A program made the position numbers and the translations under genes. This document shows positions 587 through 18,232 of a DNA stretch of 18,658 nucleotides, piece by piece. Below the pieces are notes generated by a model, which was given only the letters and a program-made list of their open reading frames with translations, was not told the DNA's origin and did no database searches. Each line of letters begins with the position of its first letter. The stretch's first letter is position 1. The DNA is from a virus (lineage: Duplodnaviria; Heunggongvirae; Uroviricota; Caudoviricetes), in IMG/VR virus record IMGVR_UViG_3300028453_000031. One strand, written 5' to 3'.

Positions 587-752
587 TCGAGTTCCACCTT
601 CTTATTCATAAGGCGGGGTACTTTCAGGATTTTGAATTTATTCAATTTTTTCCTTTCTCCAAAATCTCTCCAAAACTTTTCCCCAAAACAAGGCCACGCA
701 TTTTACAACACTTTTTTCCTGCGATGGTGACGGATATTCCATATAGTGTTTG
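587..752. other. Probable attL arm: AT-rich intergenic region between host gene start and integrase 3' end
   Basis: A/T tracts between the PotC-like start and the int stop; int is oriented toward it. The core sequence cannot be fixed without the other prophage end. Confidence 0.4.
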
Positions 753-2109: not shown

Positions 2110-2170
2110 GGCCATCACTCCGGAATGCGCCAGTTGCAGAATAGCAACTACAACTGGCGACGGTTGAACA

Positions 2171-4627: not shown

Positions 4628-4717
4628 TGATAAACCTCATAACCATTTTTAGGGTGAACAAGTCCCTGCCATTGCTGGCATATAAAAATGAAACCGGATA
4701 TTTATTACGGTGCTGGT

Positions 4718-4909
4718 TTAAAGCCCTGCCGGGACTTCGTTATTATCCATGCGAATAACTTTATCTACCGGATAACAGTTACCGGGAATTTTCTGTTCAT
4801 CTGCGGCAGCCATGCATTCTTCCATTGAGTCACGTATATCAACAATAAGATCAAGTGGTTCGCCGGTATTAAGAAAAACTGTCAGAACGAGTGCGAATGC
4901 TGTATTCAT
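4718..4909 (-). CDS. Small hypothetical early protein (63 aa) with hydrophobic N-terminus
   Basis: MNTAFALVLTVFLNTGEPLDL...; start is coupled by an ATGA overlap to the stop of the upstream small gene. The ORF track's longer version (4718..4963) uses an upstream start I consider less likely. Confidence 0.5.
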   Translation of the reverse strand: MNTAFALVLTVFLNTGEPLDLIVDIRDSMEECMAAADEQKIPGNCYPVDKVIRMDNNEVPAGL

Positions 4910-5094
4910 TGCCAGTATCCTTTTTGCATCAGACGTAAACGGGCCAGCATTGAAACAATGCATATTTGATTTAATAACTCCCGTTCGTGTTTTCTCTTAT
5001 TAATGGCATCTTCAGTAAATGCAGGGTTACTGATACTGACACCAATTTCAAAACAACCTTCAGACGTATTAACGTTTGGTAATAACGTTTCCAT
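4906..5094 (-). CDS. Small hypothetical early protein (62 aa)
   Basis: ORF METLLPNVNTSEGCFEIG... with a GAGGA Shine-Dalgarno ~7 nt upstream of the ATG. Confidence 0.55.
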   Translation of the reverse strand: METLLPNVNTSEGCFEIGVSISNPAFTEDAINKRKHERELLNQICIVSMLARLRLMQKGYWQ

Positions 5095-5270
5095 TATCGC
5101 GTCCTCAACAATGAATTTTGTGATGCGGTGCCTGGTGCCTCCAGATGACGTTAACCAGTTAACAATTAACGCCGGATTGTTAGTTGATGTCTGTTACGGA
5201 AGTAAAAGACCGCTTGTTTTAACTGTTCCGCGTGCGCATAGCCGCATTCACCGCATCACAAAATTCACTT

Positions 5271-5297
5271 TAAAAAGGGCGGATATCCATTTCCGCC
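5271..5297 (-). terminator. Rho-independent terminator candidate for leftward early transcription (tL-like)
   Basis: Inverted repeat GGCGGA / TCCGCC (5278-5283 and 5292-5297) with an 8-nt loop; on the minus strand it is followed by a U-run (plus-strand A-run 5272-5276). Confidence 0.5.
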
Positions 5298-5617
5298 GAA
5301 TCACCAGAAAAGTGATAACAGAGGTTGTTGTGGCTGGGGTGTCACTTAAGCGTATGGTCAACCTGACAACCCGGTGTCCTCAATGGGGGAAGGAATAACC
5401 CCGCCATACTTACCGCCGCGCCATTTCGCGGATTGCCACAACCGGAAGCGCACGGTCGAATTAAATTTAACGACAAAGTACAGAGAGACGAACTTCGCCG
5501 AGCGCTTTCGTGTTGTGTGCCTGCTTTTAACCACGTCAGGTGAGGTGGACCTGTTATTCCCCAACAACAAGGATCTTGTTAATCTGGATATCCACAACAA
5601 CAATAAGAGTATTGAAT

Positions 5618-5797
5618 GTGATCGCTGAATTAACGGCAGCAATGACGGCTATTCGTGAAACCGCTCAGATTGCAAAACTAATGAACGAGGCAAAAACTCA
5701 AGCTGAAGTAAATGCGGCTATTGGTGAACTGAACTCAAAGCTTGCATCTATTCAGCGCGAATGCGTGTCTCTCGTTGAGCTGGTGGGCACTTATTAA
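5618..5797 (+). CDS. Small coiled-coil-like ORF on the plus strand, ending at an in-frame TAA
   Basis: Frame encodes ...VIAELTAAMTAIRETAQIAKLMNEAKTQAEVNAAIGELNSKLASIQRECVSLVELVGTY*. Start is uncertain (GTG 5618 with weak AAGAG, or ATG 5645). The same frame stays open after the stop through 6133. Confidence 0.35.
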   Translation: MIAELTAAMTAIRETAQIAKLMNEAKTQAEVNAAIGELNSKLASIQRECVSLVELVGTY

Positions 5798-5917
5798 GAA
5801 ATAAATGCTTCTCTCAAAGCTAAAATTGCAGAATTTGAAAACTTTGAGGCTCAGACGGAAGGTTATATCCTTAACCAACTTGAGTCGGGAACTTTTGTGT
5901 ACTCGAAGGAGGTAACC

Positions 5918-6133
5918 GTGAACGGCGGCAGCATAATCATGCATCTTTGTCCAAAATGTTTTGGACAAAATATAGTATCGATACTTCAACCATTCCCGGT
6001 TAGAGAATATGAGTTTTTTCATAAAAGCAGGTGCCTATACTGTGAAAATCAGTTTATTATGAATAAAAATCCGGATTATGTATCGCCTCCATCTATTGAG
6101 AAGTTGGCCAGAAAACTGAACGGCAATCTGTAG
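5918..6133 (+). CDS. Small zinc-ribbon protein (CxxC...CxxC) on the plus strand
   Basis: Strong Shine-Dalgarno AAGGAGG at 5906-5912, 5 nt before GTG 5918. Product VNGGSIIMHLCPKCFGQN...RCLYCENQF... has two CxxC pairs. Confidence 0.5.
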   Translation: MNGGSIIMHLCPKCFGQNIVSILQPFPVREYEFFHKSRCLYCENQFIMNKNPDYVSPPSIEKLARKLNGNL

Positions 6134-6246
6134 ATTGTTACTGTTATGGATATCCAGATTGTTAAAGAGCATGCCGGATGCTTGCTTGTGTCCGGCGCGT
6201 GTGCACCAGTTCTCCCCGTGGAGGATTCCTTAACTACCAGACTTCA

Positions 6247-6480
6247 TTAGTTAGAGTTTCTTGCTAACCAGCGATGCGCGCCAGCTGCGGTTTTAAACGT
6301 TTTACTTTTGGTATACGTCATCGCGGTGAAGGTGCCGTCCTGGTTAGGGAACACACCGCATACCAGAGATTCGTTGTTACCAAGATTGAGCGTATCCATG
6401 TTGACCTCATTTCCCCTTAACGCCGGGGGAGCGGAACAAAAACCTGCTGCATAGTTATTAATGTTGAACCCTGCCGTCAT
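6247..6480 (-). CDS. Hypothetical protein, first gene of the leftward (pL-like) operon
   Basis: 77-aa ORF with GAGG ~9 nt upstream of the ATG, immediately downstream of the left operator pair. Not Arg-rich, so not obviously N-like. Confidence 0.5.
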   Translation of the reverse strand: MTAGFNINNYAAGFCSAPPALRGNEVNMDTLNLGNNESLVCGVFPNQDGTFTAMTYTKSKTFKTAAGAHRWLARNSN

Positions 6481-6585
6481 GTTCTTACGCCTCAGGCTGG
6501 CTACTTAACCCCTGACCACTGCCGGGTAACTCGAAGTATTGCCCTGCGTTCTGTGGGGCGGGGTGGGTTGGTATGAAAAGAAGGA

Positions 6586-6621
6586 TACCCATAGGTATTT
6601 AAAAAGTAAATACCCATGGGT
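6586..6621. promoter_or_regulatory. Left operator pair (OL-like): two copies of ATACCCAYRGGT
   Basis: ATACCCATAGGTAT at 6586-6599 and ATACCCATGGGTA at 6609-6621 (TACCCATGGGTA is a perfect palindrome). The same motif recurs on the other side of the repressor gene. Confidence 0.5.
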
Positions 6622-6666
6622 AACTTTTTTTACGGTGTCTTAACTGGTGACTGGTTGTTTGGTGAG

Positions 6667-7086
6667 CTATGATGCGTTTTGCGCTTTCTTTTTACGGATT
6701 TCTTCGTAGATCATATTGTAATACTGTTTTTTCTCTTCAAGAGTTTTTAATAAGTTATCCGCTTCACTTTCTGGCAGTTCGTCTAAGAGATCTAAAAAAA
6801 TACGTTGTCGTGGCGTTAGAACCCTTGTTTCATAACTGGAGGCTGTGTTCGTTGATGATGAAACGATACCATCCATCCATCCCCGGGGTAACCCAAAGGA
6901 CTCTTCGATAATCTCCACCATATCATCAGCGATCCGTTTTTTTCCCTTTTTCCCCTCTGGGTACAACATTCTTGATACATAAGAAGGCTCGCGCCCGATC
7001 TTTCTGGCCACGTTAACCGCTTTACCATCGCATTTCTCATCACGAATTTTGATGAGTTGCTGTCGTCTAAATTCATATTTGTCCAT
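6667..7086 (-). CDS. Prophage repressor, RacR-like, HTH, without a LexA-type peptidase domain
   Basis: 139-aa ORF divergent from the cro-like gene, with an HTH-like segment AVNVARKIGREPSYVSRMLY and no S24 peptidase motifs. No obvious Shine-Dalgarno, so possibly leaderless like lambda cI. Confidence 0.8.
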   Translation of the reverse strand: MDKYEFRRQQLIKIRDEKCDGKAVNVARKIGREPSYVSRMLYPEGKKGKKRIADDMVEIIEESFGLPRGWMDGIVSSSTNTASSYETRVLTPRQRIFLDLLDELPESEADNLLKTLEEKKQYYNMIYEEIRKKKAQNAS

Positions 7087-7122
7087 AGGTAAATAATAGA
7101 TGCGATTACTGCAAGGTAAACA

Positions 7123-7158
7123 ACCTGTGGGTATTGACTTTTGTTTACCTGCGGGTAT
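7123..7158. promoter_or_regulatory. Right operator pair (OR-like) in the divergent promoter region
   Basis: ACCTGTGGGTAT at 7123-7134 and ACCTGCGGGTAT at 7147-7158 are reverse complements of the ATACCCAYRGGT motif seen at 6586-6621, within direct repeats TTGTTTACCTG. Confidence 0.55.
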
Positions 7159-7186
7159 TCTTTGCTGTGTTTACTAAGGAGTAGCT

Positions 7187-7468
7187 ATGGAAGAATTAAG
7201 AATATTTCTCAATTCTCTTTCGTCAGATGAACAGCGTATGTTTGCATGCGAGTGCGGTACCAGCATCGGTTATCTAAGAAAGGCATTGAGTAAAGGTCAA
7301 GTGTTAGGGGCATCGTTATGTGTCCTTATTGAGCGAGCCAGTAATGGTGAAGTTACACGTCAGCAACTAAGGCCTTTTGATTGGATGAATATTTGGCCCG
7401 AGCTGGAAGATACCAAAACGTTAACACAACCACTTTCTAGGAGCTTGATTCATGAAAATCAAGCATGA
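7187..7468 (+). CDS. Cro/CI-type HTH regulator, YdaS-like
   Basis: 93-aa ORF with AAGGAG Shine-Dalgarno, divergent from the repressor. HTH-like CGTSIGYLRKALSKGQ. Position and size match Rac ydaS. Confidence 0.75.
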   Translation: MEELRIFLNSLSSDEQRMFACECGTSIGYLRKALSKGQVLGASLCVLIERASNGEVTRQQLRPFDWMNIWPELEDTKTLTQPLSRSLIHENQA

Positions 7469-7877
7469 ACACATCTGTATGGCGATGAATGCCTGGGCGC
7501 GTCCTGATGGCGAAAAAGTTCCAGTAGCTGCAATAACCCAGGCTTATTTTGAGTTGGGTATGACGTTTCCTGAACTGTATGACGACAGCCATCCGGAAGC
7601 CCTGGCTCGCAATACCCAGAAAATTTTCCGCTGGGTAGAGAAGGACACCCCTGATGCTGTTGAAAAAATTCAGGCGTTGTTACCGGCGATCGAAAAGGCG
7701 ATGCCGCCTTTGCTGGTGGCCCGTATGCGCAGTCACAGCTCTGAATATTACCGTGAGATCGTCGAACGGAGGGATCGACTGGTGAAGGATGTCGATGATT
7801 TTGTTGCGTCAGCGGTTGTTTTGTATGACCAGATGAATCGCGGCGGCCCGGCAGGGAATGCTGTGGTGATGCACTAA
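7452..7877 (+). CDS. YdaT-like protein
   Basis: 141-aa ORF overlapping the YdaS-like 3' end, AGGAGC before the ATG. Order and size match Rac ydaS-ydaT. Confidence 0.7.
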   Translation: MKIKHEHICMAMNAWARPDGEKVPVAAITQAYFELGMTFPELYDDSHPEALARNTQKIFRWVEKDTPDAVEKIQALLPAIEKAMPPLLVARMRSHSSEYYREIVERRDRLVKDVDDFVASAVVLYDQMNRGGPAGNAVVMH

Positions 7878-7899
7878 AAGCACGGTGTTCGGGGGTTTT

Positions 7900-8862
7900 A
7901 TGAGCAGCAAGCTTCATGGTCTTGTCTGGGAAGGGTGCGCCTTCACCGGCATGATCTTATCCAGGGTGGCAGTTATGGCCCGTCTTGCAGACTACAGCAA
8001 TGACGAGGGCGTGTCATGGCCTGCCATTGAAACTATCCGGCGTCAGATCGGTGCAAGAAGTGAATCTACCGTGAAATCTGCTATTGCAGAACTGGCGAAA
8101 GAGGGCTGGCTGACGAAGGAAGAGCGTAAGGTCGGTGGGCGTAACGTAAGCAATATCTATCGGCTTAATGTGGAAAAACTCGAAGCAGCTGCAGCTGCGG
8201 CCCGTGAGGCATATAAACCGAAAAGAAAAATTAGCCCGGCAAAAAATGACCCGTTAACAGTTGACCCGTCAAATATTGACCCCTCAACTGTTGACCCGTC
8301 AAATTTTGATGGATCAACTGTTGATAAAAAACTGCCGATTAGGGGGGCGATGATTGACCCCGATCCGTCAGTATTAAAACCTGATCCGTCAGATAAAAGA
8401 TCTTCTTGTCCGGACGTTTCGCAACCGGACCCGCAGACGGCTGAACAGGATTTTTTAACCCGACACCCTGACGCGGTTGTGTTCAGTGCGAAAAAACGCC
8501 AGTGGGGAAGTCAGGAAGATTTGGCGTGCGCACAGTGGATCTGGGGACGAATCGTGAGTCTTTACGAGCAGGCGGCCAGCGATGATGGCGAGATCACGAG
8601 ACCGAAAGAACCCAACTGGACAGCATGGGCCAATGATGTGCGCACAATGCGGATGCTGGATGGCAGAACTCACAGACAAATTTGTGAAATGTTTGGGCGT
8701 GTCCAGCGGGATTCGTTCTGGGTAAAAAACATCATGAGTCCGGCAAAACTCCGGGAAAAATGGGATGAACTGGTTATCCGCCTGGGGCGTTCGCCCGCGC
8801 AGCGTTGCGTGAATCACATTTCTGAACCGGACACTGAAATACCGCCGGGATTCAGGGGGTGA
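7900..8862 (+). CDS. Replication initiator (O-like / YdaU-like) with N-terminal winged helix
   Basis: N-terminal HTH region (ARLADYSNDEGVSWPAIETIRRQIGARSESTVKSAIAELAKEGWL); internal tandem iterons; immediately upstream of the DnaC-like gene. ATG 7900 preferred over the track's GTG 7885 (G-rich SD-like stretch upstream). Confidence 0.8.
   Translation: MSSKLHGLVWEGCAFTGMILSRVAVMARLADYSNDEGVSWPAIETIRRQIGARSESTVKSAIAELAKEGWLTKEERKVGGRNVSNIYRLNVEKLEAAAAAAREAYKPKRKISPAKNDPLTVDPSNIDPSTVDPSNFDGSTVDKKLPIRGAMIDPDPSVLKPDPSDKRSSCPDVSQPDPQTAEQDFLTRHPDAVVFSAKKRQWGSQEDLACAQWIWGRIVSLYEQAASDDGEITRPKEPNWTAWANDVRTMRMLDGRTHRQICEMFGRVQRDSFWVKNIMSPAKLREKWDELVIRLGRSPAQRCVNHISEPDTEIPPGFRG
8246..8320. repeat. Iterons (candidate ori): five tandem ~15-bp repeats inside the initiator gene
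   Basis: Units TGACCCGTTAACAGT / TGACCCGTCAAATAT / TGACCCCTCAACTGT / TGACCCGTCAAATTT / TGATGGATCAACTGT with 15-bp period, encoding DPLTVDPSNIDPSTVDPSNFDGSTVD. This is the lambda O-type arrangement. Confidence 0.65.
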
Positions 8863-8868
8863 CGTGTC

Positions 8869-9606
8869 ATGAAAAACATTGCGGCAGTTGGGGTTCTTGA
8901 ACGTATTCGCAGAATTGCACCACAGGGGGAGGTTCCACCGTACCGTACGGTGGAGGAGTGGCGGGAATGGCAGCTTGCTGAAGGGCGTAAGCGCAGCGAG
9001 GAGGTTAATCGCCTGAATCATCAGACGCGGGTTGAAAAAATCATTAACCGCTCCGGTATCCAGCCGCTTCACTGGAAGTGTACGTTCGGTAACTACCGGG
9101 TGCAGAACGATGGTCAGCGCCATGCCCTGAGTCAGGCGAAATCCATTGCGGCAGAGCTGGAAGGCGGCTGTACGAATTTTGTTTTCAGTGGCCGACCTGG
9201 CACAGGGAAAAACCACCCGGCGGCGATAGGCAATCGGCTGATGGAGAAGGGGCGCAGCGTAATTATCATCACTGTGTCTGATGTCATGAGTGTGTCGCAC
9301 GACAGTTACGACAACGGCAAATCAGGTGAAAAATTTTTACAGGAGCTTTGCGAGGTGGATTTGCTGGTCCTGGATGAAATTGGCATGCAGCGGGATACGC
9401 GCAATGAGCAAGTCACGCTTAATCAGATTGTTGACCGCAGAACGTCATCATTACGCAGTGTAGGGATGCTGACGAACCTGAATCATGTCGCAATGAATAC
9501 GCTTGTAGGCGAAAGGGCAATGGACCGCATGTCCATGAACGGTGGTCGCTGGGTGACTTTTGACTGGGAGAGCTGGCGTCCGAACGTCAGCCAGCACAGG
9601 AACTGA
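8869..9606 (+). CDS. DnaC-like helicase loader (AAA+ ATPase)
   Basis: SGRPGTGKNHPAAIGN (Walker A as in E. coli DnaC GKPGTGKNH), LLVLDEIGMQ (Walker B), and a C-terminal region resembling DnaC (NQIVDRR...GMLTNLN). Start is coupled to the initiator stop. Confidence 0.85.
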   Translation: MKNIAAVGVLERIRRIAPQGEVPPYRTVEEWREWQLAEGRKRSEEVNRLNHQTRVEKIINRSGIQPLHWKCTFGNYRVQNDGQRHALSQAKSIAAELEGGCTNFVFSGRPGTGKNHPAAIGNRLMEKGRSVIIITVSDVMSVSHDSYDNGKSGEKFLQELCEVDLLVLDEIGMQRDTRNEQVTLNQIVDRRTSSLRSVGMLTNLNHVAMNTLVGERAMDRMSMNGGRWVTFDWESWRPNVSQHRN

Positions 9607-9634
9607 GATGTAATTTTTGTCGGAGGAAATTTTA

Positions 9635-10405
9635 ATGGAAACCGTTTTTGACGCACTGAAAGCAATGGGAAAAGCCACATCGGTAGAACTGGCTGCGCGA
9701 CTTGATATCAGTCGTGAAGAGGTTCTCAACGAGCTGTGGGAACTCAAAAGAAATGGCGTCGTTGATAAAACTGGTCACACCTGGTTTCTGGCTGGCGAAG
9801 GTGAATCCCGGGTAACCGAAGAGCAGCCAGCAAAATCTGAAGCACCGGATGTGCTGACCGGGGAGGTCGAACAAAAAGTTACCGCAGACATGATGATTGA
9901 GTTTATCGGTCAGGAGGGGGCTAAAACGTGTGAGGAACTGGCGGGTAAGTTCGGTGTTAGCACTCGCAAGGTTGCTTCCACGCTGGCGGTAGTAACCGCA
10001 ACGGGGCGGTTGGCACGCGTTAATCAGAACGGTAAATTTCGTTACTGCATGCCGGGCGATAATTTACCAGTAGAGCCGAAAGCCGCGCCGGTAACGGAAA
10101 ATGATGGTAAGGCATTTCCTCAGTCAGCAGGTGTTGCGTTACCAGTCCGGGAAGCTGCAACACAGGAAGAAATTAAAACAGAAACTGTGGCGGACATTGT
10201 GCAGTCGTTGCCATCGTTCACCGAAACGCAAACGGATGACCTGGTTTTACCATCGCTGCATATGGCAAACCGCGAACTGCGTCGGGCGAAAAGTCATGTC
10301 CAGAAGTGGGAGCGTGTCTGCGCCGCGTTGCGGGAGCTGAACAAGCACCGGGATATTGTTCGACAGATTGTCGATTCCTCCAGTCGTATTGTGTCGGAAA
10401 AGTGA
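9635..10405 (+). CDS. Hypothetical protein with two winged-helix-like repeats
   Basis: GGAGG 8 nt before ATG 9635 (track start TTG 9617 less likely). Two similar HTH-like segments: [26 protein letters not shown] and [30 protein letters not shown]. Confidence 0.7.
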
Positions 10406-10420
10406 TTGCCGGAGGCGCTT

Positions 10421-10843
10421 ATGGCAAAAGTATTTACACAGGAAGAGCGGGAAAAAATTAAAGGGCAGGTTGTTGAGCTAGTACGCCAGAGTGGGCGCGA
10501 GACGTTACGGCAACTGGAAGCCAAGACAGGTGCGACAAGATATCTGATGAGCGTTCTCGCAAGAGAGCTGGTTGCCAGTGGTGATGTATACAACTCTGGC
10601 TACGGGTTATTTCCCTCTGAACAGGCTCGTAAGGACTGGCAAAACGCCCGCAAAAAACTATCGAGGGCAAAGATGAAGAAATCGGTTGCAGTTGATCCGG
10701 ACCTTATCTGGTCATTACCTGACGGAGAAATACGTCGTTATGACAGGCACCAAAACATAATTTGCTGTGAGTGCCGGAAGAGTGAAGTTATGCAGCGTGT
10801 ACTGGCTTTCTATCAGGGTAATTTTCAGGAGGCGGTACTGTGA
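10421..10843 (+). CDS. Hypothetical protein
   Basis: GGAGG 5 nt before ATG 10421; 140-aa ORF tightly packed with its neighbours. Confidence 0.65.
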   Translation: MAKVFTQEEREKIKGQVVELVRQSGRETLRQLEAKTGATRYLMSVLARELVASGDVYNSGYGLFPSEQARKDWQNARKKLSRAKMKKSVAVDPDLIWSLPDGEIRRYDRHQNIICCECRKSEVMQRVLAFYQGNFQEAVL

Positions 10844-10900
10844 GTGAAATTAGCTATCAGGCTTCAATTGTCGCTGGCATTCGCATCAAAGGAGAGGAGC

Positions 10901-11257
10901 ATGGAAATAAAACCAGAAGATGAGTTAAGCAATATTGTTTTATTTCCGGTAAAAGAGGATGACCCACGTAATCAGGTTAATTTTCTTTATGAGCCATCGG
11001 AAAGACCATACTGCCATCACGCCTCTGTCCGGGTTGACGAAAAAGAGCGCCAGGTCCGATGCAAAATTTGCGGTGCGGTTGTGGAGCCATTTGACTGGAT
11101 GCTCTCAGTGGCGAAAAGAGAAACCAGACTGGCAGATGATGTAAGGCTATTGCGCCAGGAGGAACAGGAAAGGCGAAAAAATATAGAAAAGCTAATTCAG
11201 ATTGAGCGTAACGCGAAAGCGCGGATACGCAGGGCGACAAAATTTAGCCCCGAATAA
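10901..11257 (+). CDS. Hypothetical zinc-ribbon protein
   Basis: GGAGAGGAG before ATG 10901 (track GTG 10844 is in frame but has a weaker context). CHH...CKICG motif. Confidence 0.6.
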   Translation: MEIKPEDELSNIVLFPVKEDDPRNQVNFLYEPSERPYCHHASVRVDEKERQVRCKICGAVVEPFDWMLSVAKRETRLADDVRLLRQEEQERRKNIEKLIQIERNAKARIRRATKFSPE

Positions 11258-11422
11258 TTAACATTATTATCGGAAATAAAATCCTTAACCGGAGGGATTT
11301 CTGCACCCTCAGAACATCAGGAGGCCACCAGAAATGGCGGTAATGAAAAATTAACCAGAGAGCAATTAATCAAAGAAGCCAAATTAAAAATAGCGGTTGC
11401 GAAATGTCACCCCAATTCAGAG

Positions 11423-11689
11423 ATGGCTAGGGTAGAGGGCGAGCTATTCAAAATTGCACTGGCATCGCTGGAAGCAGAACCGGTGGCATATCAGTATCGC
11501 CTGTGGGATGCGGAATATGATGAATGGGGGGAATGGGAAGATTGCGGAGAATGCGCTTACGAAGGATTTGTTGAGGAAGAGAAACTCCAGGGGGCAGCTG
11601 TTCAGACCCGTAAGCTATACGCCACACCGCCAGTGCCGGTAGTGCCGGAATTTGAAACATGGTTTAACAGCCAGGAGTCAGGGAGATAA
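11423..11689 (+). CDS. Hypothetical acidic protein
   Basis: 88-aa ORF in the same orientation and operon context; weak RBS. Confidence 0.5.
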   Translation: MARVEGELFKIALASLEAEPVAYQYRLWDAEYDEWGEWEDCGECAYEGFVEEEKLQGAAVQTRKLYATPPVPVVPEFETWFNSQESGR

Positions 11690-11692
11690 ATC

Positions 11693-12193
11693 ATGATTAA
11701 TCGTACTAAACTGGAGCACATCCTCGAATATGCCAGGCAGCAGAGGCATATTGGTCAGCATTGTAAAATTCCAGCAGGAGATATGGTTGAAATCGTGGAG
11801 ATTGCCATGTGTAAGACTGGTAACTCTCAGGTAATTCCAGATGAGGTGCTGTCAGCAATTATGAAGGTAGTCAGGATTCGTACCGACTTTGCCGATTTTG
11901 ACGGTGACAGGCGAGGTATCGGTGATTGTCTGGATGAGTCTGAGCAAGAGCTTATCGTTACCATTAACAAATATGCCAGTCAGTTGGTAGTGGAACCGGT
12001 AGTACCTGATGAAGAACGGGAACAGACAGTCACGCCGCCAACACCTGGTAACCAGATTAACGAATTAACCATGTTGGTTAAGCGATTAGCCAGTTCGCTA
12101 AAAAGCGTCAATAAATCAAGCAAGCTACCTGATAAAGCGATGGAATATCTGAAGCAGAACGGACTGGTTGGTGTGGAGGATATTTTACGATGA
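11693..12193 (+). CDS. Hypothetical protein
   Basis: GGAG-rich Shine-Dalgarno before ATG 11693; 166-aa ORF; stop overlaps the next small ORF start (ATGA). Confidence 0.65.
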   Translation: MINRTKLEHILEYARQQRHIGQHCKIPAGDMVEIVEIAMCKTGNSQVIPDEVLSAIMKVVRIRTDFADFDGDRRGIGDCLDESEQELIVTINKYASQLVVEPVVPDEEREQTVTPPTPGNQINELTMLVKRLASSLKSVNKSSKLPDKAMEYLKQNGLVGVEDILR

Positions 12194-12273
12194 CCTGGCC
12201 TGAAGCATTTGCAATTGTAGGCGTTGCTATGGCTATCGCTTTTTTAGTATATGTTATTTGTCGGTGGGGGTAA
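12190..12273 (+). CDS. Small hydrophobic peptide (27 aa), single predicted TM helix
   Basis: MTWPEAFAIVGVAMAIAFLVYVICRWG; ATG overlaps the upstream stop (ATGA coupling). Confidence 0.4.
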   Translation: MTWPEAFAIVGVAMAIAFLVYVICRWG

Positions 12274-12307
12274 AACGTTCGCCGGGATTCACACCAAAGG
12301 AGGGAAT

Positions 12308-12412
12308 ATGTCGGATGATATTTCACTGGCAATGGAAGGCGCTCTGGCTGTTATTGCTGTTGTTATTGTTTACTGCCTGGTTGTGTTTTTGATGGATCGG
12401 CTGGGGAACTGA
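12308..12412 (+). CDS. Small hydrophobic peptide (34 aa), single predicted TM helix
   Basis: MSDDISLAMEGALAVIAVVIVYCLVVFLMDRLGN; strong AAGGAGGG Shine-Dalgarno at 12297-12304. Confidence 0.45.
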   Translation: MSDDISLAMEGALAVIAVVIVYCLVVFLMDRLGN

Positions 12413-12422
12413 ATTCATTGCG

Positions 12423-12656
12423 ATATGGGAATTCCCATATTGGGCAAAAACGGTTTGCTGTAAAGCGAGAGTTAAGTAGAATTGCTGCGGGTGCTTGAGG
12501 CTGTCTGCCTCGGGCATGCCGCCGTAAGGCAGACAGAGAAAAGCCCCAGTTAACATAACGCGTCCTGCAAGACGCTTAACATTAATCTGAGGCCCAATCT
12601 ATGTCTCACAAATGTAGGTTAGCCTCTTACGTGCCGAAGGCAAGGAGAAGCAGGCT
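12423..12656 (+). promoter_or_regulatory. hok mRNA leader region with strong secondary structure; expected location of the antisense (sok-like) RNA
   Basis: 18-bp perfect palindrome ATATGGGAATTCCCATAT (12423-12440); 10-bp perfect stem CTGTCTGCCT / AGGCAGACAG (12501-12510 and 12527-12536); short leader ORF 12601-12660 ending in ATGA at the hok start. Confidence 0.45.
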
Positions 12657-12812
12657 ATGAAGCAGCAAAAGGCGACGTTAATCGCCCTGATCGTCATCTG
12701 TTTAACCGTCATAGTGACGGCACTGGTAACGAGGAAAGACCTCTGCGAGGTACGAATCCGAACCGGCCAGACGGAGGTCGCTGTTTTCACAGTCTACGAA
12801 CCTGAGGAGTAA
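12657..12812 (+). CDS. hok: Hok/Gef family type I toxin
   Basis: 51-aa product MKQQKATLIALIVICLTVIVTALVTRKDLCEVRIRTGQTEVAVFTVYEPEE matches the Hok family pattern (TM helix then TRK.LCE.R.R.G..EVA....YE). AAGGAG 9 nt upstream. Confidence 0.85.
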   Translation: MKQQKATLIALIVICLTVIVTALVTRKDLCEVRIRTGQTEVAVFTVYEPEE

Positions 12813-12878
12813 GAGTGACCTGGGCGGGGTACTGATCCCATCCCCGCCCACCTCTGATGTGTCAGGCATCCTCAATGC

Positions 12879-12902
12879 ACCCGCACTTAACCCGCTTCGG
12901 CG
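12879..12902 (+). terminator. Rho-independent terminator after hok
   Basis: CCCGC-TTCG-GCGGG hairpin followed by TTTGTTTTTT. A further GGGCGGGG...CCCCGCCC inverted repeat lies at 12821-12848. Confidence 0.6.
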
Positions 12903-12986
12903 GGGTTTGTTTTTTCCTGGCATTCTGGTTTACAATTCGCACGTCAGCCTGAACAACTGGCACCTGCTGCGTCACCGGAGATCCCG

Positions 12987-13256
12987 ATGGCGCACGATAC
13001 CAGATTGCACAATTCTGCCGACCTTGCCAGCAGGCATGGGCGGCGTTCTCACACATTCAAATCTGACTGGTTCCAGCATGACCCGTGCACTGAAGAACAG
13101 GCCGAATGGCTGATTCAGTGCTACCGCAGACGTGGTTACGAGTTTCAGAAAGATCTCAGCTTCGATCGTCGTCACTGGATAATCTCCGTCAGGCTCCCTT
13201 ATTCCGAACGCCCACCGCGTTCATCCCGCACATACCAGCAACGTATCTGGAGGTAA
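12987..13256 (+). CDS. Hypothetical protein (89 aa)
   Basis: ATG with GGAG 8 nt upstream; stop lies one base before the GTG start of the next gene. Confidence 0.45.
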   Translation: MAHDTRLHNSADLASRHGRRSHTFKSDWFQHDPCTEEQAEWLIQCYRRRGYEFQKDLSFDRRHWIISVRLPYSERPPRSSRTYQQRIWR

Positions 13257-13257
13257 C

Positions 13258-14316
13258 GTGCGGGTATTACTTCGACCTGTTCTGGTACCGGAACTCGGGC
13301 TGGTGGTCCTTAAGCCGGGCCGTGAATCCATGCCGGTATTTCACAATCCCCGTGTGCTGGTGGAGCCTGAACCGAAAAGCATGAGTGGCCAGCCATCCGG
13401 GATCGTTCCTGTCGTTCGCCAGCCGCTGGCTGAGGATAAATCATTACTGCCATTTTTCAGCGATGAGCGGGTGATCCGTGCTGCTGGCGGTGCTGGTGCA
13501 CTGCCTGACTGGTTATTACGTCACGTGAAATCCTGTCAGTGGCCTCATGGTGATTATCATCACAGCGAAACCGTCATTCACCGTTACGGTACCGGCGCGA
13601 TGGTGTTGTGCTGGCACTGCGACAACCAGTTGCGGGAGCAGACATCTGATTCACTGGAGCAACTTGCTCAGCAGAATCTGGCAGCCTGGATGATTGATGT
13701 CATACGTCACGCAATGAATGGCACACAGGAGCGGGAACTGTCGCTGGCCGAATTATCCTGGTGGGCGGTCTGCAATCAGGTGGCTGATGCGCTTCCGGAG
13801 TCTGTATTGCGTCGTTCGCTGGGATTACCGGTGGAAAAAATCCGCTCCGTATACCGTGAGAGTGACATCATTCCGGGAGCGCAGACCTCCACCAGCATAC
13901 TGAAACAGCGCACAAAAAATATTACGCTACCGCCTCATACCCACCAGCAACAGACCCTACCACAGGAAAAGACGTTAGTAAGCATCGCCGTTGATCCGGA
14001 GTCTCCGGCTCAGTACCTCCAGCGCCAGAAACCACAACGGGAAGAGATGCCCGTATACACGCGCTGGGTAAAAACGCAGAAATGCATGACGTGTGGCAAT
14101 CAGGCAGATGATCCGCATCACATCATTGGTCATGGACTGGGAGGGATGGGAACAAAGGCTGACGATTTGTTTGTTATTCCGTTGTGCCGTAAATGCCATA
14201 ACGAACTGCATGCCGGAGTAAAAGATTTTGAAGAGAAACACGGCAGTCAGCTGTTGTTGCTGATTCGTTTTTTAATGCACGCGAGAAATTCGGGTGTTCT
14301 GAAGTGGAAAGCATAA
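13258..14316 (+). CDS. DUF968/YdfU-like protein with C-terminal HNH/YbcO-like zinc-binding nuclease motif
   Basis: C-terminus CMTCGNQADDPHHIIGHGLGGMGTKADDLFVIPLCRKCHNELH has the cysteine/histidine pattern of YbcO/DUF968-type phage nucleases. GGAGG ~4 nt before GTG 13258. Confidence 0.7.
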   Translation: MRVLLRPVLVPELGLVVLKPGRESMPVFHNPRVLVEPEPKSMSGQPSGIVPVVRQPLAEDKSLLPFFSDERVIRAAGGAGALPDWLLRHVKSCQWPHGDYHHSETVIHRYGTGAMVLCWHCDNQLREQTSDSLEQLAQQNLAAWMIDVIRHAMNGTQERELSLAELSWWAVCNQVADALPESVLRRSLGLPVEKIRSVYRESDIIPGAQTSTSILKQRTKNITLPPHTHQQQTLPQEKTLVSIAVDPESPAQYLQRQKPQREEMPVYTRWVKTQKCMTCGNQADDPHHIIGHGLGGMGTKADDLFVIPLCRKCHNELHAGVKDFEEKHGSQLLLLIRFLMHARNSGVLKWKA

Positions 14317-14553
14317 ATGACCGAACGCATAGAATTTGTTTTGCCTTACCCGCCAACGGTGAACACTTACTGGCGACGTCGTGACCTGGACAACATTCTG
14401 AAAGCGCCACTGGATGCGCTGACGCATGCAGGACTACTTATCGACGACGAGCAGTTTGATGAAATTAATATTGTGCGCGGTCTGCCTGTTCCTGGCGGAC
14501 GGCTTGGTGTGAAAATTTACGAAATAACGCATGGCGGGCAGGCAAAAGAATGA
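14317..14553 (+). CDS. rusA: RusA-family Holliday junction resolvase with apparent internal in-frame deletion (78 aa versus ~120 aa)
   Basis: N-terminus LPYPPTVNTYW and C-terminal part RRRDLDNILKAPLDALTHAGLLIDDEQ...GGRLGVKIYEI align to RusA as I recall it; about 40 central residues are absent. ATGA coupling at both ends. Confidence 0.65.
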   Translation: MTERIEFVLPYPPTVNTYWRRRDLDNILKAPLDALTHAGLLIDDEQFDEINIVRGLPVPGGRLGVKIYEITHGGQAKE

Positions 14554-15371
14554 AACTGGAAGATTTACCAAAATACTATTCCCCAAAATCACCGGGTCTG
14601 ACGGATGCATCGGCCTCAACGTCAAAAGATGCGCTGAGTATCACTGATGTGATGGCAGCGCAGGGCATGACACAGAATCGGGCTGAGATGGGGTTTTCTG
14701 CGTTCCTTGGGAAAATGGGCATTAGTATGAATGACAGAGAGCGGGCAACAGAATTGCTGACAGAATATGCACTCAGTCGGTGTGATCGCGTGGCGGCGTT
14801 AAGAAAACTCCCGGCAGAAATAAAACCGGCAGTGATGCGTATTATGGCTTCGTATGCGTTTGAAGATTATGCCCGTAGCGCGGCGAGCAAAAAACAGTGC
14901 CCCTGCTGTCACGGAAAAAAATTTATTGAAAGCGAGGTTTTTACAAACAAGATCCAGTATCCGGATGGTAAGCCGCCAGTGTGGGCAAAGTGCACAAAAG
15001 GCGTGTATCCGTCTTACTGGGAGGAATGGAAAAAAGTCAGGGAGGTGGTAAAAGTTGCCTGTCCGGAGTGTGGAGGGAAGGGAGAGGTATCCACTGCCTG
15101 TAAAGATTGTCGTGGGCGCGGTGTTGCCATTCATCGTGAAGAGTCGGAAAAACAGGGTGTGCCGGTTTTCAGAAACTGTCAGCGTTGTGGTGGGCGTGGC
15201 TATGAAAGATTACCTTCAACGGAGGCATTTAATGCCATATGTAATGTAACCGATGCCATATCTCTTGATACATGGAAAAAAACAGTTAAACGTTTTTACG
15301 ATACGCTGGTGGTGCAGTTTGATATTGAAGAAGCATGGGCAGAACAACAACTGAAAAAGGTGACCAGATAG
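14550..15371 (+). CDS. Late-gene antiterminator Q-like protein (multi-CxxC zinc binding)
   Basis: Position after rusA and before the late promoter and tRNAs. SPKSP...TDVMAAQGM N-terminal pattern and several CxxC pairs. Family assignment is from memory of Q-type proteins. Confidence 0.65.
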   Translation: MKLEDLPKYYSPKSPGLTDASASTSKDALSITDVMAAQGMTQNRAEMGFSAFLGKMGISMNDRERATELLTEYALSRCDRVAALRKLPAEIKPAVMRIMASYAFEDYARSAASKKQCPCCHGKKFIESEVFTNKIQYPDGKPPVWAKCTKGVYPSYWEEWKKVREVVKVACPECGGKGEVSTACKDCRGRGVAIHREESEKQGVPVFRNCQRCGGRGYERLPSTEAFNAICNVTDAISLDTWKKTVKRFYDTLVVQFDIEEAWAEQQLKKVTR

Positions 15372-15376
15372 CTTTG

Positions 15377-15404
15377 TTGATTTTTCCCGAATCTGTGGTA
15401 AATT
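15377..15404 (+). promoter_or_regulatory. Candidate late promoter (PR'-like)
   Basis: TTGATT (15377-15382), 16-nt spacer, TAAATT (15399-15404), directly downstream of the Q-like gene. Confidence 0.3.
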
Positions 15405-15450
15405 TGCCCTAACGATGGGCGTTTTATGCCTGACGTTAGAAGATTTTTAC

Positions 15451-15476
15451 ACCCGTCGCCAGGCGGGTTTTTTTAT
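15451..15476 (+). terminator. Candidate tR'-like terminator in the late leader
   Basis: ACCCG...CGGGT stem (5 bp, 8-nt loop) followed by TTTTTTTA. Confidence 0.45.
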
Positions 15477-15596
15477 GACTGAAATCACGCCAGTACATAA
15501 AATGTGCAGGTGGTTATTAATACCGGTCTTTCAGCTTGCTGGCTTTTTTGACAAGAGTTATTGGTGTGTCACGTTAACCGGAAAAGGGAAAAAGAC

Positions 15597-15794
15597 ATGC
15601 TGAAACAGCAGGATATGACCGAAACCGCCAGAGTGGTGTTTAATGAATTAAGCGTCACCGAACCGGCGACAGTCGGGGAGATTGCGCAGAATACTTACCT
15701 TTCACGCGAACGCTGCCAGTTAATACTGACCCAGCTTGTTATGGCGGGTCTGGCAGACTATCAGTTCGGTTGTTACAGACGCCTTCAGTCATGA
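15597..15794 (+). CDS. Small hypothetical protein (65 aa), possible winged helix
   Basis: MLKQQDMTETARVVFNELSVTEPATVGEIAQNTYLSRERCQLILTQLVMAGLADYQF...; first ORF after the late leader. Confidence 0.5.
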   Translation: MLKQQDMTETARVVFNELSVTEPATVGEIAQNTYLSRERCQLILTQLVMAGLADYQFGCYRRLQS

Positions 15795-15944
15795 AGGCTT
15801 TTTTATTTGTGGTAAATGGGCGGCTGGTGGGTGTTAGGGGCACTCACCAGCCATCTGCTCATGCGTCTGGATCACAAGCAAACCTCAGGCCCACTGCTTT
15901 GCGCAAAAGCAGAATGAGCCTATCAGAGACAGGCTTAATGATCC

Positions 15945-17003
15945 ATGTTTAATACTGTAAAAATATCCAGTTGTGAGTTGATCAACGCTGACTGCCTGGA
16001 ATTTATCCGGTCGTTACCCGAAAATTCTGTTGACCTGATAGTCACGGACCCGCCGTCCTTTAAAGTGAAGCCTGAGGGCTGGGATAACCAGTGGAAGGGC
16101 GACGATGATTACCTGAAATGGCTGGACCAGTGTCTGGCGCAGTTCTGGCGGGTGCTGAAACCTGCCGGAAGTCTTTACCTGTTCTGTGGCCATCGCCTGG
16201 CATCTGACATTGAAATCATGATGCGAGAACGCTTCAGTGTGCTGAACCATATTATCTGGGCGAAGCCGTCCGGACGCTGGAACGGGTGCAACAAGGAAAG
16301 CCTGAGGGCGTATTTCCCCGCCACAGAGCGCATTCTGTTCGCGGAACATTATCAGGGGCCGTATCGTCCGAAAGATGCCGGGTATGAGGCGAAGGGCAGG
16401 GCACTGAAACAGCATGTGATGACACCGCTGATTGCTTACTTTCGTGATGCGCGTGCTGCCCTGGGGATAACGGCAAAACAGATTGCTGATGCCACAGGAA
16501 AGAAAAACATGGTGTCGCACTGGTTCAGTGCCAGTCAGTGGCAGTTACCGAACGAAAGCGATTATCTGAAATTACAGGTGCTGTTTGCCCGGGTGGCAGA
16601 AGAGAAGCATCAGCGGGGTGAACTGGAAAAGCCCCACCACCAGCTGCTGGAGACGTATACTTCACTGAACCGGCAGTATGCGGAACTGCAGAGTGAATAT
16701 AAGCATCTGCGGCGGTATTTTGGCGTGACGGCGCAGATGCCGTACACGGATGTGTGGACGCATAAACCGGTGCAGTACTATCCCGGGAAACATCCGTGCG
16801 AAAAACCGGCAGAAATGCTGCAGCAGATAATCAGCGCGAGCAGTCGTCCGGGTGACCTGGTTGCAGATTTTTTCATGGGGTCGGGTTCGACAGTCAAAGC
16901 CGCGATGGCGCTGGGGCGGCGTGCAACTGGCGTTGAGCTGGAGACTGAACGTTTTGAGCAGACGGTCAGAGAAGTTCAGGATTTAGTCAGTCAGAACGGA
17001 TGA
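15945..17003 (+). CDS. Orphan DNA methyltransferase, beta-class amino-MTase (N6-adenine or N4-cytosine)
   Basis: Motif IV-like LIVTDPPSF near the N-terminus and motif I FFMGSGST near the C-terminus (beta-class order). No adjacent restriction endonuclease gene. Confidence 0.85.
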   Translation: MFNTVKISSCELINADCLEFIRSLPENSVDLIVTDPPSFKVKPEGWDNQWKGDDDYLKWLDQCLAQFWRVLKPAGSLYLFCGHRLASDIEIMMRERFSVLNHIIWAKPSGRWNGCNKESLRAYFPATERILFAEHYQGPYRPKDAGYEAKGRALKQHVMTPLIAYFRDARAALGITAKQIADATGKKNMVSHWFSASQWQLPNESDYLKLQVLFARVAEEKHQRGELEKPHHQLLETYTSLNRQYAELQSEYKHLRRYFGVTAQMPYTDVWTHKPVQYYPGKHPCEKPAEMLQQIISASSRPGDLVADFFMGSGSTVKAAMALGRRATGVELETERFEQTVREVQDLVSQNG

Positions 17004-17043
17004 TATTGCAGGATTAGTTACGTACCGTTATTATCCTGCGCCC

Positions 17044-17119
17044 GGCCCTTTAGCTCAGTGGTGAGAGCGAGCGACTCATAATCGCCAGGTCGCTGGTTCA
17101 AATCCAGCAAGGGCCACCA
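17044..17119 (+). tRNA. ileZ: tRNA-Ile (anticodon CAU, lysidine type), ileX/ileZ-like
   Basis: 76 nt, 7-bp acceptor stem GGCCCTT/AAGGGCC, anticodon loop CTCATAA, T-loop TTCAAAT, 3' CCA. Near-identical to E. coli tRNA-Ile2 as I recall it. Confidence 0.85.
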
Positions 17120-17128
17120 TATCACATA

Positions 17129-17205
17129 CCGCCATTAGCTCATCGGGATAGAGCGCCAGCCTTCGAAGCTGGCTGCGCGGGGTTCGAGTCCTCGATGGCG
17201 GTCCA
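17129..17205 (+). tRNA. tRNA-Arg (anticodon UCG)
   Basis: 77 nt, acceptor CCGCCAT/ATGGCGG, D-arm GCTC/GAGC, anticodon stem CCAGC/GCTGG with loop CTTCGAA, T-arm CGGGG-TTCGAGT-CCTCG, 3' CCA. Resembles the rare-codon Arg tRNA (argO-like) of Stx phages. Confidence 0.8.
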
Positions 17206-17942: not shown

Positions 17943-18202
17943 GATTTTGGGGCGCTGGAAAGATATTGTGCTGTGAAGTGTTAAATCCCTCACAATTCAG
18001 TAAGTTGACAGTTGCCTGTCAGACTGAGCATTTGTTAAAAAAATTTCGCATGGTGAATCCCCCTGTGCGGAGGGGCGACTGGTGAACGGTATGATCTCTT
18101 TGATGATCGTAAGCGAGAATACGCGGGTTTGGTGTCACCGGGCTGAACTCACCGGGAGGCACCCGGCACCATGCTCATGGTGATACAGAAATGCGGCTTC
18201 AG

Positions 18203-18228
18203 CCCCTCTCCGGAGGGGCTTTCTTATG
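18203..18228 (+). terminator. Rho-independent terminator (plus strand)
   Basis: GCCCCTC-TCCG-GAGGGGC perfect 7-bp stem followed by TTTCTTAT. Confidence 0.5.
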
Positions 18229-18232
18229 GACA

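Follow-up and report, generated by a model that had tools for sequence, protein, structure and literature searches.

What do the genes that follow the replication module of a lambdoid prophage contribute? In phage lambda, ren confers the classical Rex-resistance phenotype, and the nin region holds the terminators tR2-tR4. A two-hybrid assay shows Ren to interact with Rex proteins, and the protein has been called 'likely involved in DNA replication' (bioRxiv 10.1101/2021.04.19.439022); lambda ren is dispensable according to the literature summarised in PMC10695390. Rac ydaW is reported to have emerged from an overexpression screen for genes that block the retron-Sen2 toxin RcaT. Finally, the Ea22 and DUF551 proteins of lambdoid and Stx phages have been described as following the same mosaic logic that we find below in the present locus (PMC10834534).

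The window, by which we mean the whole 18,658-nucleotide stretch of viral DNA, derives from a Rac-like lambdoid prophage of a type common in E. coli and is 99.7% identical to a prophage of E. coli M18, in which the matching stretch is annotated as DUF1627, DUF977, three hypothetical proteins and a DUF551 fragment. The block under study lies on the + strand in the rightward early operon (Table 1). An earlier note, made from the sequence alone, had listed five same-strand ORFs at 9635-12193 between the replication genes and the Q-proximal genes; the coordinates proved exact, and the gene order, with DUF968, RusA and Q beyond the block, bears out the placement. The same note called the ORFs tightly packed, which describes ORF1/2 (15 nt), ORF2/3 (57 nt) and ORF4/5 (3 nt) but not ORF3/4 (165 nt), and credited them with good ribosome-binding sites, which is true of the GGAGG or AGGAG preceding ORF1, ORF2, ORF3 and ORF5 but not of the ORF4 ATG at 11423, which is preceded only by CAGAG. 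We propose, with a confidence somewhat above even, that the block is an accessory tail of the replication (early-right) operon, made up of a constant Ren-like gene and exchangeable cassettes, and that it serves in Ren-type anti-exclusion.

Table 1. Features of the block and of the replication genes upstream of it (window coordinates).
Feature	Coordinates	Strand	Description
O-like initiator	7885-8862		replication gene upstream of the block, with iterons (iteron or origin DNA at 8226-8322)
DnaC-like gene	8869-9606		replication gene upstream of the block
ORF1	9635..10405	+	256 aa; full-length YdaW / DUF1627 (phrog_630)
ORF2	10421..10843	+	140 aa, pI 9.5; DUF977 / 'LygF'; long-form lambda Ren homologue by profile comparison
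ORF3	10901..11257	+	118 aa; phrog_1621; no Pfam family
Stub MAVMKN	11334..11354	+	6 codons behind strong AGGAGG at 11320
ORF4	11423..11689	+	88 aa, pI 4.2; what is left of a 115-aa mosaic protein after 5' truncation
ORF5	11693..12193	+	166 aa; chimera of three modules
27-aa hydrophobic ORF MTWPEAFAIVGVAMAIAFLVYVICRWG	12190..12273	+	overlaps the ORF5 stop (ATGA)

Four of the ORFs are clearly genuine genes, with HMM matches in Pfam or PHROGs at E values from 2e-98 to 1e-37. ORF1, ORF2 and ORF3 are intact, proteins identical to them are present in other strains, and comparison with 11-39 other alleles gives dN/dS ratios of 0.35, 0.10 and 0.06, respectively, indicating purifying selection. These three alone are probably fully functional in the source prophage. 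The picture of five clean genes does not extend to the remaining two, ORF4 having lost its start and ORF5 being a rare three-module chimera. Within the block we found no Rfam RNA family and no meaningful repeats, and PDB sequence searches with ORF1, ORF2, ORF3 and ORF5 returned no significant relative.

The ORFs had been described as having no recognisable function, a statement that fails for ORF2, a lambda Ren homologue, and for ORF1, the full-length form of K-12 Rac YdaW. ORF2 matches the Pfam model DUF977 (PF06163) with 112.7 bits (cutoff 22.1) over profile positions 1-134 of 134, and both ORF2 and lambda Ren match phrog_142, the 'Ren-like exclusion protein' family, at E values of 1.5e-47 and 1.6e-41, respectively. 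Furthermore, hhalign aligns the DUF977 profile with lambda Ren over 73 columns that take in the winged helix and the C-terminal motif (probability 95.7%, E 1e-8); by plain BLASTP only the C-terminal 20 aa of ORF2 align with Ren. The protein consists of an N-terminal winged helix, an insert of ~40 aa and the C-terminal motif N-x2-C-x-E-C-R-x-S-x2-M-x-R-V-L-A-F-Y, in which the CxxC is invariant. All of the 74 related loci ascertained on ORF2 have this gene directly behind the replication module or ORF1, the gene that ends just before it being either ORF1 or an O-like initiator. Judged by profile similarity and gene order, ORF2 is a homologue of lambda Ren and its positional equivalent.

ORF1 matches phrog_630 at E 1.4e-136 and, across all 155 profile positions, DUF1627 (PF07789) with 326.8 bits (cutoff 28.1). 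An acidic winged-helix-like segment (aa 4-49) is joined by a linker to a basic one (aa 84-137), followed in the C-terminal half of the protein by an acidic disordered stretch (138-205) and a long basic helix (206-254). The segments had been read as duplicated. Two HTH-like segments (aa 4-48 and 85-133) are indeed present, backed by sub-threshold Pfam HTH matches and by a helix-helix-helix-strand pattern in a low-confidence AF2 model, but duplication is not shown because BLASTP finds no similarity between them. Since each of the 120 listed homologues is 79-94% identical, the AF2 model (pLDDT 51.6) is too poor to be used in a fold comparison. We considered and rejected a Z-alpha identity for ORF1: three of seven weak PDB matches are Z-alpha domains (ADAR1, E3L), with E values of 0.1-0.8, and Pfam z-alpha gives no match at E<=1. 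Likewise rejected were paralogy of the second winged helix with that of ORF2 (hhalign probability only 46%) and paralogy of the C-terminal helices of ORF1 and ORF3, the comparison of which gave nothing.

ORF3, which matches phrog_1621 at E 2.8e-56, combines an acidic disordered N-terminus, a C38-x-H40...C54-x2-C57 ribbon and a single, strongly conserved basic helix of ~50 residues (aa 63-114, 'LRxEExxRRxNIEKLIQIERNAKARIRR'). That one of the genes carries a zinc ribbon had been suggested before, and none of C38, H40, C54 and C57 varies among 52 sequences with identities down to 46%; the AF2 model (pLDDT 73.7; strands 43-46, 51-54 and 60-61) places them on a beta-hairpin knuckle. At the level of predicted fold, ORF3 fits a zinc ribbon, with four conserved predicted ligands on a beta-hairpin. 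The TFIIB zinc-ribbon model PF08271 scores ORF3 at 21.5 bits (E 1.7e-4), below its cutoff of 29; the best Foldseek match in the PDB is the TFIIB N-terminal ribbon (prob 0.90, E 0.27), which is not significant, and the fold search against BFVD gave nothing significant. Homologues of ORF3 form 150 clusters among 5.8e9 proteins, and the hosts named by their sources are all Enterobacterales. In other strains, ORF3 is fused to an Ead/Ea22 N-terminus.

ORF4 retains half of a common N-terminal module ('...ELFKIALASLEAEP') followed by a variable acidic tail. Relative to the M18, CI5 and O111 prophages, the window has an 8-bp deletion at 11348/11349 that removes the native start codon of a protein of 115-123 aa, which begins MAELTREQL... 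in M18 and CI5 (WP_071886252.1) and MTELTKEKL... in O111. Consistent with this, matches to phrog_5117 and phrog_660 begin at profile positions 28 and 31 in the window ORF4 and at 1-3 in the M18 form, and inspection of the sequence upstream of 11423 reveals no Shine-Dalgarno motif. The ribosome-binding site at 11320 now drives the short stub rather than ORF4. By this alignment, ORF4 is here a start-loss allele. In many related loci, homology with the window breaks off at 11348, and in these the 11320 ribosome-binding site and ATG begin other genes, for example one encoding a very acidic 60-aa protein; on such comparisons, the cassette region has its conserved left-hand junction at the stub.

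In ORF5, the N-terminal ~50 aa are common to DUF551 proteins and resemble the N-terminus of a DUF551 protein of O111, the central part corresponds to phrog_14306, and the last ~50 aa ('ELTMLVKRL...LPDKAMEYLKQNGL..EDILR') match the C-terminal end of phrog_660. In this O111 relative, DUF551 occupies aa 51-116; in ORF5 itself Pfam finds no DUF551 domain (PF04448), and the PGAP annotation stops after ~54 codons, which it labels an incomplete DUF551 pseudogene. Matches to ORF5 in related loci come module by module; among 5426 genomes, 1117 contain its modules and 3 the combination at full length. The 27-aa ORF that overlaps its end has tblastn matches in ~40 of 80 related loci, and the DNA homology of related loci picks up again at ~12120-12275. 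From these alignments, the cassette region ends on the right in a conserved junction formed by the C-terminal module of ORF5 and the 27-aa ORF.

Between these boundaries, turnover is extensive. The description of the position as a variable hotspot holds for everything downstream of ORF2, where 49 loci contain 84 ORF clusters and the interval from ORF3 to hokD ranges from 1.07 to 3.26 kb in related prophages. The Ren-like gene is the sole constant member of the block in related prophages; ORF1 and ORF3-5 are exchangeable, and many related prophages keep the replication genes yet lack ORF1 or ORF3. Conserved junctions lie at 8860/10411, about 10715, 10832/10870, 11302-11348 and about 12120-12275. 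An obligate ORF2-ORF3 pair, apparent when loci were ascertained on ORF3, was rejected, since of 75 loci ascertained on ORF2 just 20 have ORF3 behind the Ren-like gene. Pfam returns no match for ORF4 or ORF5 at E<=1, and thus none to Ead_Ea22 (PF13935).

The block had been called nin-equivalent. This is apt for its position between the replication genes and Q but not for its content: the named Pfam and PHROG matches of the five ORFs include no NinB-NinI homologue, and in a crude consensus scan the + strand of the block is free of terminator-like sites, which first appear at 12764-12780 and 12891, in the hok region. The equivalence is therefore positional only, and the five are not all well-characterised nin proteins. 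Consensus scans place a + strand promoter-like site at 7134-7161 and weaker 9/12 matches at 9242 and 10010, and detect no promoter exceeding 9/12 and no terminator-like site between the block and the ydaS/ydaT-O-DnaC genes. From these scans we infer that the block is probably co-transcribed with those genes.

How might such a tail work? We propose that after induction the block would be transcribed with the replication genes from the repressor-controlled rightward promoter. ORF2, a basic winged-helix protein, may bind DNA or the phage replication complex and, being Ren-like, could protect the replicating phage from abortion where lambdoid prophages in the same host carry Rex-type exclusion systems. 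ORF1, with its two winged-helix segments and basic helix, is a cassette inserted mostly behind helicase-loader genes, and ORF3, with its zinc ribbon and basic helix, another exchangeable cassette. ORF4 and ORF5 belong to a small acidic mosaic family with a common N-terminal module and C-terminal modules swapped in the style of Ead/Ea22 and DUF551 proteins, and recombination at the conserved junctions would reassort the cassettes.

Alternatively, the whole block could be an anti-defence or host-takeover island in which each protein neutralises host or prophage immunity, which we regard as unlikely. YdaW, for instance, would counter retron-type toxins, Rex would be the target of the Ren-like protein, and the acidic mosaic proteins would serve as decoys, details that we consider improbable as well. 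The appearance of Rac ydaW among blockers of RcaT, the family label 'exclusion protein', the extreme cassette turnover downstream of ORF2 and the strong acidity of ORF4 and of the 60-aa protein of neighbouring loci would all fit such an island. However, the available text of the screen names ydaW only among its prophage-gene blocker hits and reports the re-testing of 11 without stating whether ydaW was included, and the K-12 copy of ydaW is truncated. Moreover, defence-related models give nothing beyond generic winged-helix similarity (among PADLOC models, nothing significant for ORF2-5 and a match of ORF1 to the Csa3/CARF HTH at E ~3e-5; in NCBIfam, generic HTH similarity only), and the strong purifying selection on ORF2 and ORF3, together with their conserved basic surfaces, is more like that of housekeeping nucleic-acid binders than of arms-race proteins. 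Overall, the anti-defence idea for the block draws on two indirect leads, the Rex-resistance phenotype of Ren and the recovery of Rac ydaW in the screen, and is only weakly supported.

It is likewise doubtful that ORF1-3 are accessories of a replisome organiser with no exclusion role. YdaW would then link the helicase loader to the initiator or origin, and origin firing or the switch to late replication would be tuned by the Ren-like and zinc-ribbon proteins, again a scheme to which we assign a low probability. ORF1 is preceded by the DnaC-like gene or by a 221-aa protein, which we take to be P-like, in 22 of 31 related loci and directly follows the initiator in 2 of 20 loci with initiator-only modules, loci that are closely related and non-independent. 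In addition, the DnaC-like gene and ORF1 behave as a single insertion/deletion unit (8861-10410) in related loci, the origin iterons lie 1.3 kb upstream, and Ren has been described as probably replication-related (bioRxiv 10.1101/2021.04.19.439022). Against this, lambda ren is non-essential (PMC10695390), many related prophages have the same replication genes without ORF1 or ORF3, and seven loci carry the DnaC-like gene without ORF1.

A bolder variant, to which we give little credence, would make the YdaW, Ren-like and zinc-ribbon proteins a joint portable anti-abortive-infection module: made with the replication genes, they would bind replication intermediates or the replisome and leave sensors of co-resident prophages and retrons (RexAB, or the retron-Sen2 toxin RcaT) untriggered, the complex being assembled through the basic helices of ORF1 and ORF3 together with the invariant CxxC of ORF2. 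Finally, that the block is the decaying, now functionless ballast of a cryptic prophage is very improbable: the lost start of ORF4, the annotation of ORF5 only as a 54-codon pseudogene fragment, an internal deletion of ~46 aa in RusA and a 1-aa deletion adjoining the Walker A motif of the DnaC-like protein would suggest it, but ORF1-3 are intact, identical to other strains' proteins and constrained across many alleles (dN/dS 0.06-0.35), and these genes are also carried by inducible, sequenced phages.

We return to our preferred reading, an accessory tail of the replication operon with a constant Ren-like gene, and to its import. Parts of a 3.1-kb query across the block (9400-12500) match 4702 of 5426 complete E. 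coli genomes (87%), frequently as multiple copies and with Stx-converting phages among the carriers, so that the block is ordinary and already catalogued; all five ORFs belong to catalogued families, and nothing here will surprise a specialist in lambdoid phages. It is this abundance in E. coli, Stx-converting phages included, that gives the families their relevance. A firm link between DUF977 and lambda Ren opens a cheap genetic approach to the Ren phenotype, unexplained for 45 years. For annotation, 'LygF/DUF977' can be read as Ren-like, ORF4 of the window as a start-loss allele, and the region as cassettes between fixed junctions.

How closely, then, does each part of the block resemble its nearest described counterpart? 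TFIIB-type ribbons are the best Pfam and Foldseek similarity of ORF3, in which four conserved residues, the putative metal ligands, are likewise set on a beta-hairpin knuckle, but in TFIIB the ribbon is followed by cyclin folds, whereas ORF3 has a C-H-C-C set and a single 50-residue basic helix. The Ead/Ea22 and DUF551 proteins differ from ORF4 and ORF5 in lying in the exo-xis region rather than in the rightward operon, and ORF4 and ORF5 match neither Pfam model; they are alike in having a common N-terminal module and portable C-terminal modules and in being acidic (PMC10834534), and the N-terminal module of ORF5 is one borne by DUF551 proteins. K-12 Rac YdaW (b1361) is 62% identical to ORF1 over aa 1-154 and occupies the same place, after the DnaC-like YdaV, which is itself 74% identical to the DnaC-like protein of the window. 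However, YdaW has 186 aa, its similarity to ORF1 stops at ~aa 151-154 and rzpR comes directly next; relative to ORF1, which has the full 256 aa with the C-terminal DUF1627 helix, the K-12 protein is truncated. Finally, lambda Ren is shorter than ORF2 (96 against 140 aa, the latter with the ~40-aa insert), lacks the CxxC that is invariant in DUF977 and fails to match the Pfam DUF977 model, and the function of ORF2 may therefore have diverged from that of Ren. Nevertheless, both belong to phrog_142, both are basic and combine a winged helix with a C-terminal 'ECRxSxxMxRVLAxY' motif, and, like ren directly after P in the pR operon, ORF2 is encoded immediately 3' of the replication genes.

What is the block of five ORFs (9635-12193) that lies between the replication genes and the Q-proximal genes? 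Its ORF boundaries match the earlier note exactly, and the evidence best fits an accessory segment of Ren type within the replication operon, with exchangeable cassettes on its flanks. The identity, architecture, selection and mosaicism of the block were observed directly, and its features are genuine, previously catalogued, very widespread and unremarkable in a lambdoid prophage. The window is a Rac-type lambdoid prophage from E. coli: a 3.1-kb query around the block is 99.7% identical to a prophage of E. coli M18, which adjoins potC, and only five differences separate the two within 602-14722. From inside the Q gene identity falls from about 100% to about 90% (14723-17205), and the alignment stops at 17205. 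This drop marks a recombination junction, so the late region of the prophage came from another lineage. Two tRNAs in 14723-17205 carry the anticodons CAT and TCG; the M18 annotation has Ile and Lys instead.

Features of the window in gene order (window numbering)
Feature	Position	Strand	Remarks
integrase, xis, RecE-like exonuclease, dicB, repressor		minus	
ydaS-like, then ydaT-like		plus	5' of the O-like initiator
O-like initiator	7885-8862	plus	
DnaC/YdaV-like loader	8869-9606	plus	followed by the five ORFs
ORF1	9635-10405	plus	YdaW/DUF1627
ORF2	10421-10843	plus	DUF977
ORF3	10901-11257	plus	zinc-ribbon protein
ORF4	11423-11689	plus	
ORF5	11693-12193	plus	
hydrophobic ORF, 27 aa	12190-12273		MTWPEAFAIVGVAMAIAFLVYVICRWG; overlaps ORF5 stop; just 5' of sok/hokD
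hydrophobic ORF, 33 aa	12311-12412		MSDDISLAMEGALAVIAVVIVYCLVVFLMDRLGN; just 5' of sok/hokD
sok antisense RNA	12489-12662		Rfam 108.9 bits
hokD type I toxin gene	12657-12812		
DUF968			
RusA	14317-14553		78 aa
Q			
methyltransferase			
tRNAs			
STnc100 sRNA	18019-18231		Rfam 172 bits

A consensus scan of the plus strand listed one promoter-like site at 7134-7161 and otherwise only two 9-of-12 matches, at 9242 and 10010; terminator-like sites first occur in the hok region (12764-12780 and 12891). From this we infer co-transcription of the block with the replication genes. A strong terminator-like hairpin 3' of sok/hokD (12891-12904) seems to be where transcription first meets a barrier 5' of DUF968-RusA-Q. 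The O-like gene holds five to six 15-bp iterons (TTGACCC[G/C]T[C/T]AA) at 8226-8322, which have overlapping inverted symmetry, encode the repeated peptide DPS.(I/V)DPS and are probably the phage's origin of replication. In the loader, GTGKNH-PAAIG stands where K-12 YdaV and an O111 relative have GTGKNHLAAAIG; this one-residue deletion plus Pro directly after the Walker A motif, common to M18, may impair the ATPase. RusA has lost about 46 internal residues in frame, compared with the 124-aa protein of an O111 prophage, and is therefore probably inactive. The two hydrophobic ORFs may encode small membrane or toxin-like peptides; tblastn matches to the 27-aa one occur in roughly half of the related loci. 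A 2026 preprint links the prophage sRNA STnc100 with PasD sRNAs from pathogenic E. coli.

DNA comparison of the window with 80 related loci revealed recurrent breakpoints at 8860/10411, ~10715, 10832/10870, 11302-11348 and ~12120-12275. The DnaC-like gene and ORF1 behave as a single insertion/deletion unit, and the DNA of the ORF2 C-terminal module and ORF3 forms one recombination unit, with homology beginning at ~10715 in many loci. When loci are ascertained on ORF3, ORF2 nearly always lies 5' of it; when they are ascertained on ORF2, ORF3 is next in only 20 of 75, and the remainder carry other cassettes in the ORF3 slot, including QueH-like, deoxyribosyltransferase-like and methyltransferase genes. 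Thus, the Ren-like gene is the only constant element, and we classify ORF1 and ORF3-5 as cassettes. The variable region that the earlier note placed here is borne out by this turnover: across 49 related loci the ORF3-hokD interval varies in length between 1.07 and 3.26 kb and contains 84 full-length ORF clusters, 31 of them linked by partial similarity only, with a shared N-terminal "...ALASLEAEP" module and swapped C-terminal modules.

By their sequences, ORF4 and ORF5 are members of one mosaic super-family, and Ea22/DUF551 proteins have been described as mosaics that follow the same logic (PMC10834534). ORF5 joins an N-terminal module of ~50 aa that DUF551 proteins also carry, a middle module, and a widespread C-terminal module that always lies 5' of the 27-aa hydrophobic ORF. 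The full combination occurs in 3 of 5426 genomes and its parts in 1117; PGAP annotates only the first ~54 codons, which it calls an incomplete DUF551 pseudogene. When aligned with M18, CI5 and an O111 prophage, the window proves to have lost 8 bp at 11348/11349 and thereby the native start (MAELTREQL...) from which a protein of 115-123 aa is read, leaving an 88-aa ORF from an internal Met (ORF4) and a 6-codon stub behind a strong ribosome-binding site. In agreement, PHROG matches begin at profile positions 28 and 31 in ORF4, versus 1-3 in the M18 form. Good ribosome-binding sites, which the earlier note gave to all five ORFs, precede ORF1, 2, 3 and 5 (GGAGG/AGGAG-type), and ORF4 lacks one. Decay as an explanation fits ORF4 and possibly ORF5. 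We note that in 25 of the 49 loci the slot at window position 11334, where the window has the stub, encodes a 60-aa, extremely acidic protein, MRKFKIIIETGIAGGDFEDEFEVDDDATPDEIHDEAKDIFFNYCNYSYHEIKDEEEEQNG, from a conserved ribosome-binding site and ATG; this protein, absent from the window, is a plausible candidate for the DNA-mimic type.

A Pfam profile search assigns ORF1 to DUF1627 (326.8 bits), and its alignment makes it the full-length counterpart of K-12 Rac YdaW, to which it is 62% identical over aa 1-154, where similarity to the 186-aa K-12 copy stops. It comes after a DnaC-like gene or one for a 221-aa, putatively P-like protein in 22 of 31 loci, and directly after the initiator in 2 of 20. 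Its two HTH-like segments, aa 4-48 and 85-133, match many winged-helix families in Pfam at sub-threshold scores, and a low-confidence AF2 model (pLDDT 51.6) predicts a pair of helix-helix-helix-strand units with disordered linkers and, at the C-terminus, a long helix (206-254). Segment 1 is acidic, and segment 2 and the C-terminal helix are basic. The segments show no similarity to each other, so their earlier description as duplicated is not supported. The zinc ribbon of the earlier note lies in ORF3: 52 sequences down to 46% identity keep C38, H40, C54 and C57 without exception and the C-terminal helix almost unchanged, and the AF2 model (pLDDT 73.7) predicts a beta-hairpin ribbon between a disordered N-terminus and a single helix (63-114). 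Neither Pfam nor Foldseek scores the resemblance to the TFIIB ribbon above threshold, and a fold search of BFVD gave nothing significant. ORF3 belongs to phrog_1621 and to no Pfam family; its family has 150 clusters in a 5.8-billion-protein set, and all source-named hosts are Enterobacterales.

Could the block serve anti-defence, as the earlier note suggested? The classical ren phenotype, reportedly resistance to Rex exclusion (Toothman and Herskowitz, in 1980), is one indirect lead; another is Rac ydaW, a hit as RcaT blocker in an overexpression screen. However, a PADLOC search of the block returned generic HTH similarity only, and the anti-defence reading is weakly indicated. Pure decay of ORF1-3 is ruled out by selection, with dN/dS against other alleles of 0.35, 0.10 and 0.06, respectively.

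As a Ren-type accessory segment, the block would act by nucleic-acid or replisome binding, protecting the phage from Rex-type exclusion. Lambda ren is non-essential (PMC10695390), probably replication-related, and interacts with Rex proteins (bioRxiv 10.1101/2021.04.19.439022). ORF2 belongs to DUF977 (Pfam), annotated as "LygF" in phage records, a narrow family with 102 representatives among 1.84 billion proteins. Both ORF2 (E 1.5e-47) and lambda Ren (E 1.6e-41) match phrog_142, "Ren-like exclusion protein", and a profile built from 14 diverse DUF977 proteins can be aligned with lambda Ren (hhalign probability 95.7%, E 1e-8) across the winged helix and, at the C-terminus, the ECR-S-M-RVLA-Y motif. 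Within aa 105-140 of ORF2 (10733-10843), which hold C115 and C118, DUF977 proteins have no other conserved metal ligand nearby; the CxxC might contribute one half of a zinc site shared between molecules. In lambda, Ren directly follows P, and ORF2 occupies the equivalent slot. In contrast to lambda Ren, which does not match the Pfam DUF977 model, ORF2 has an insert of ~40 aa and, like all DUF977 proteins, the invariant CxxC that lambda Ren lacks.
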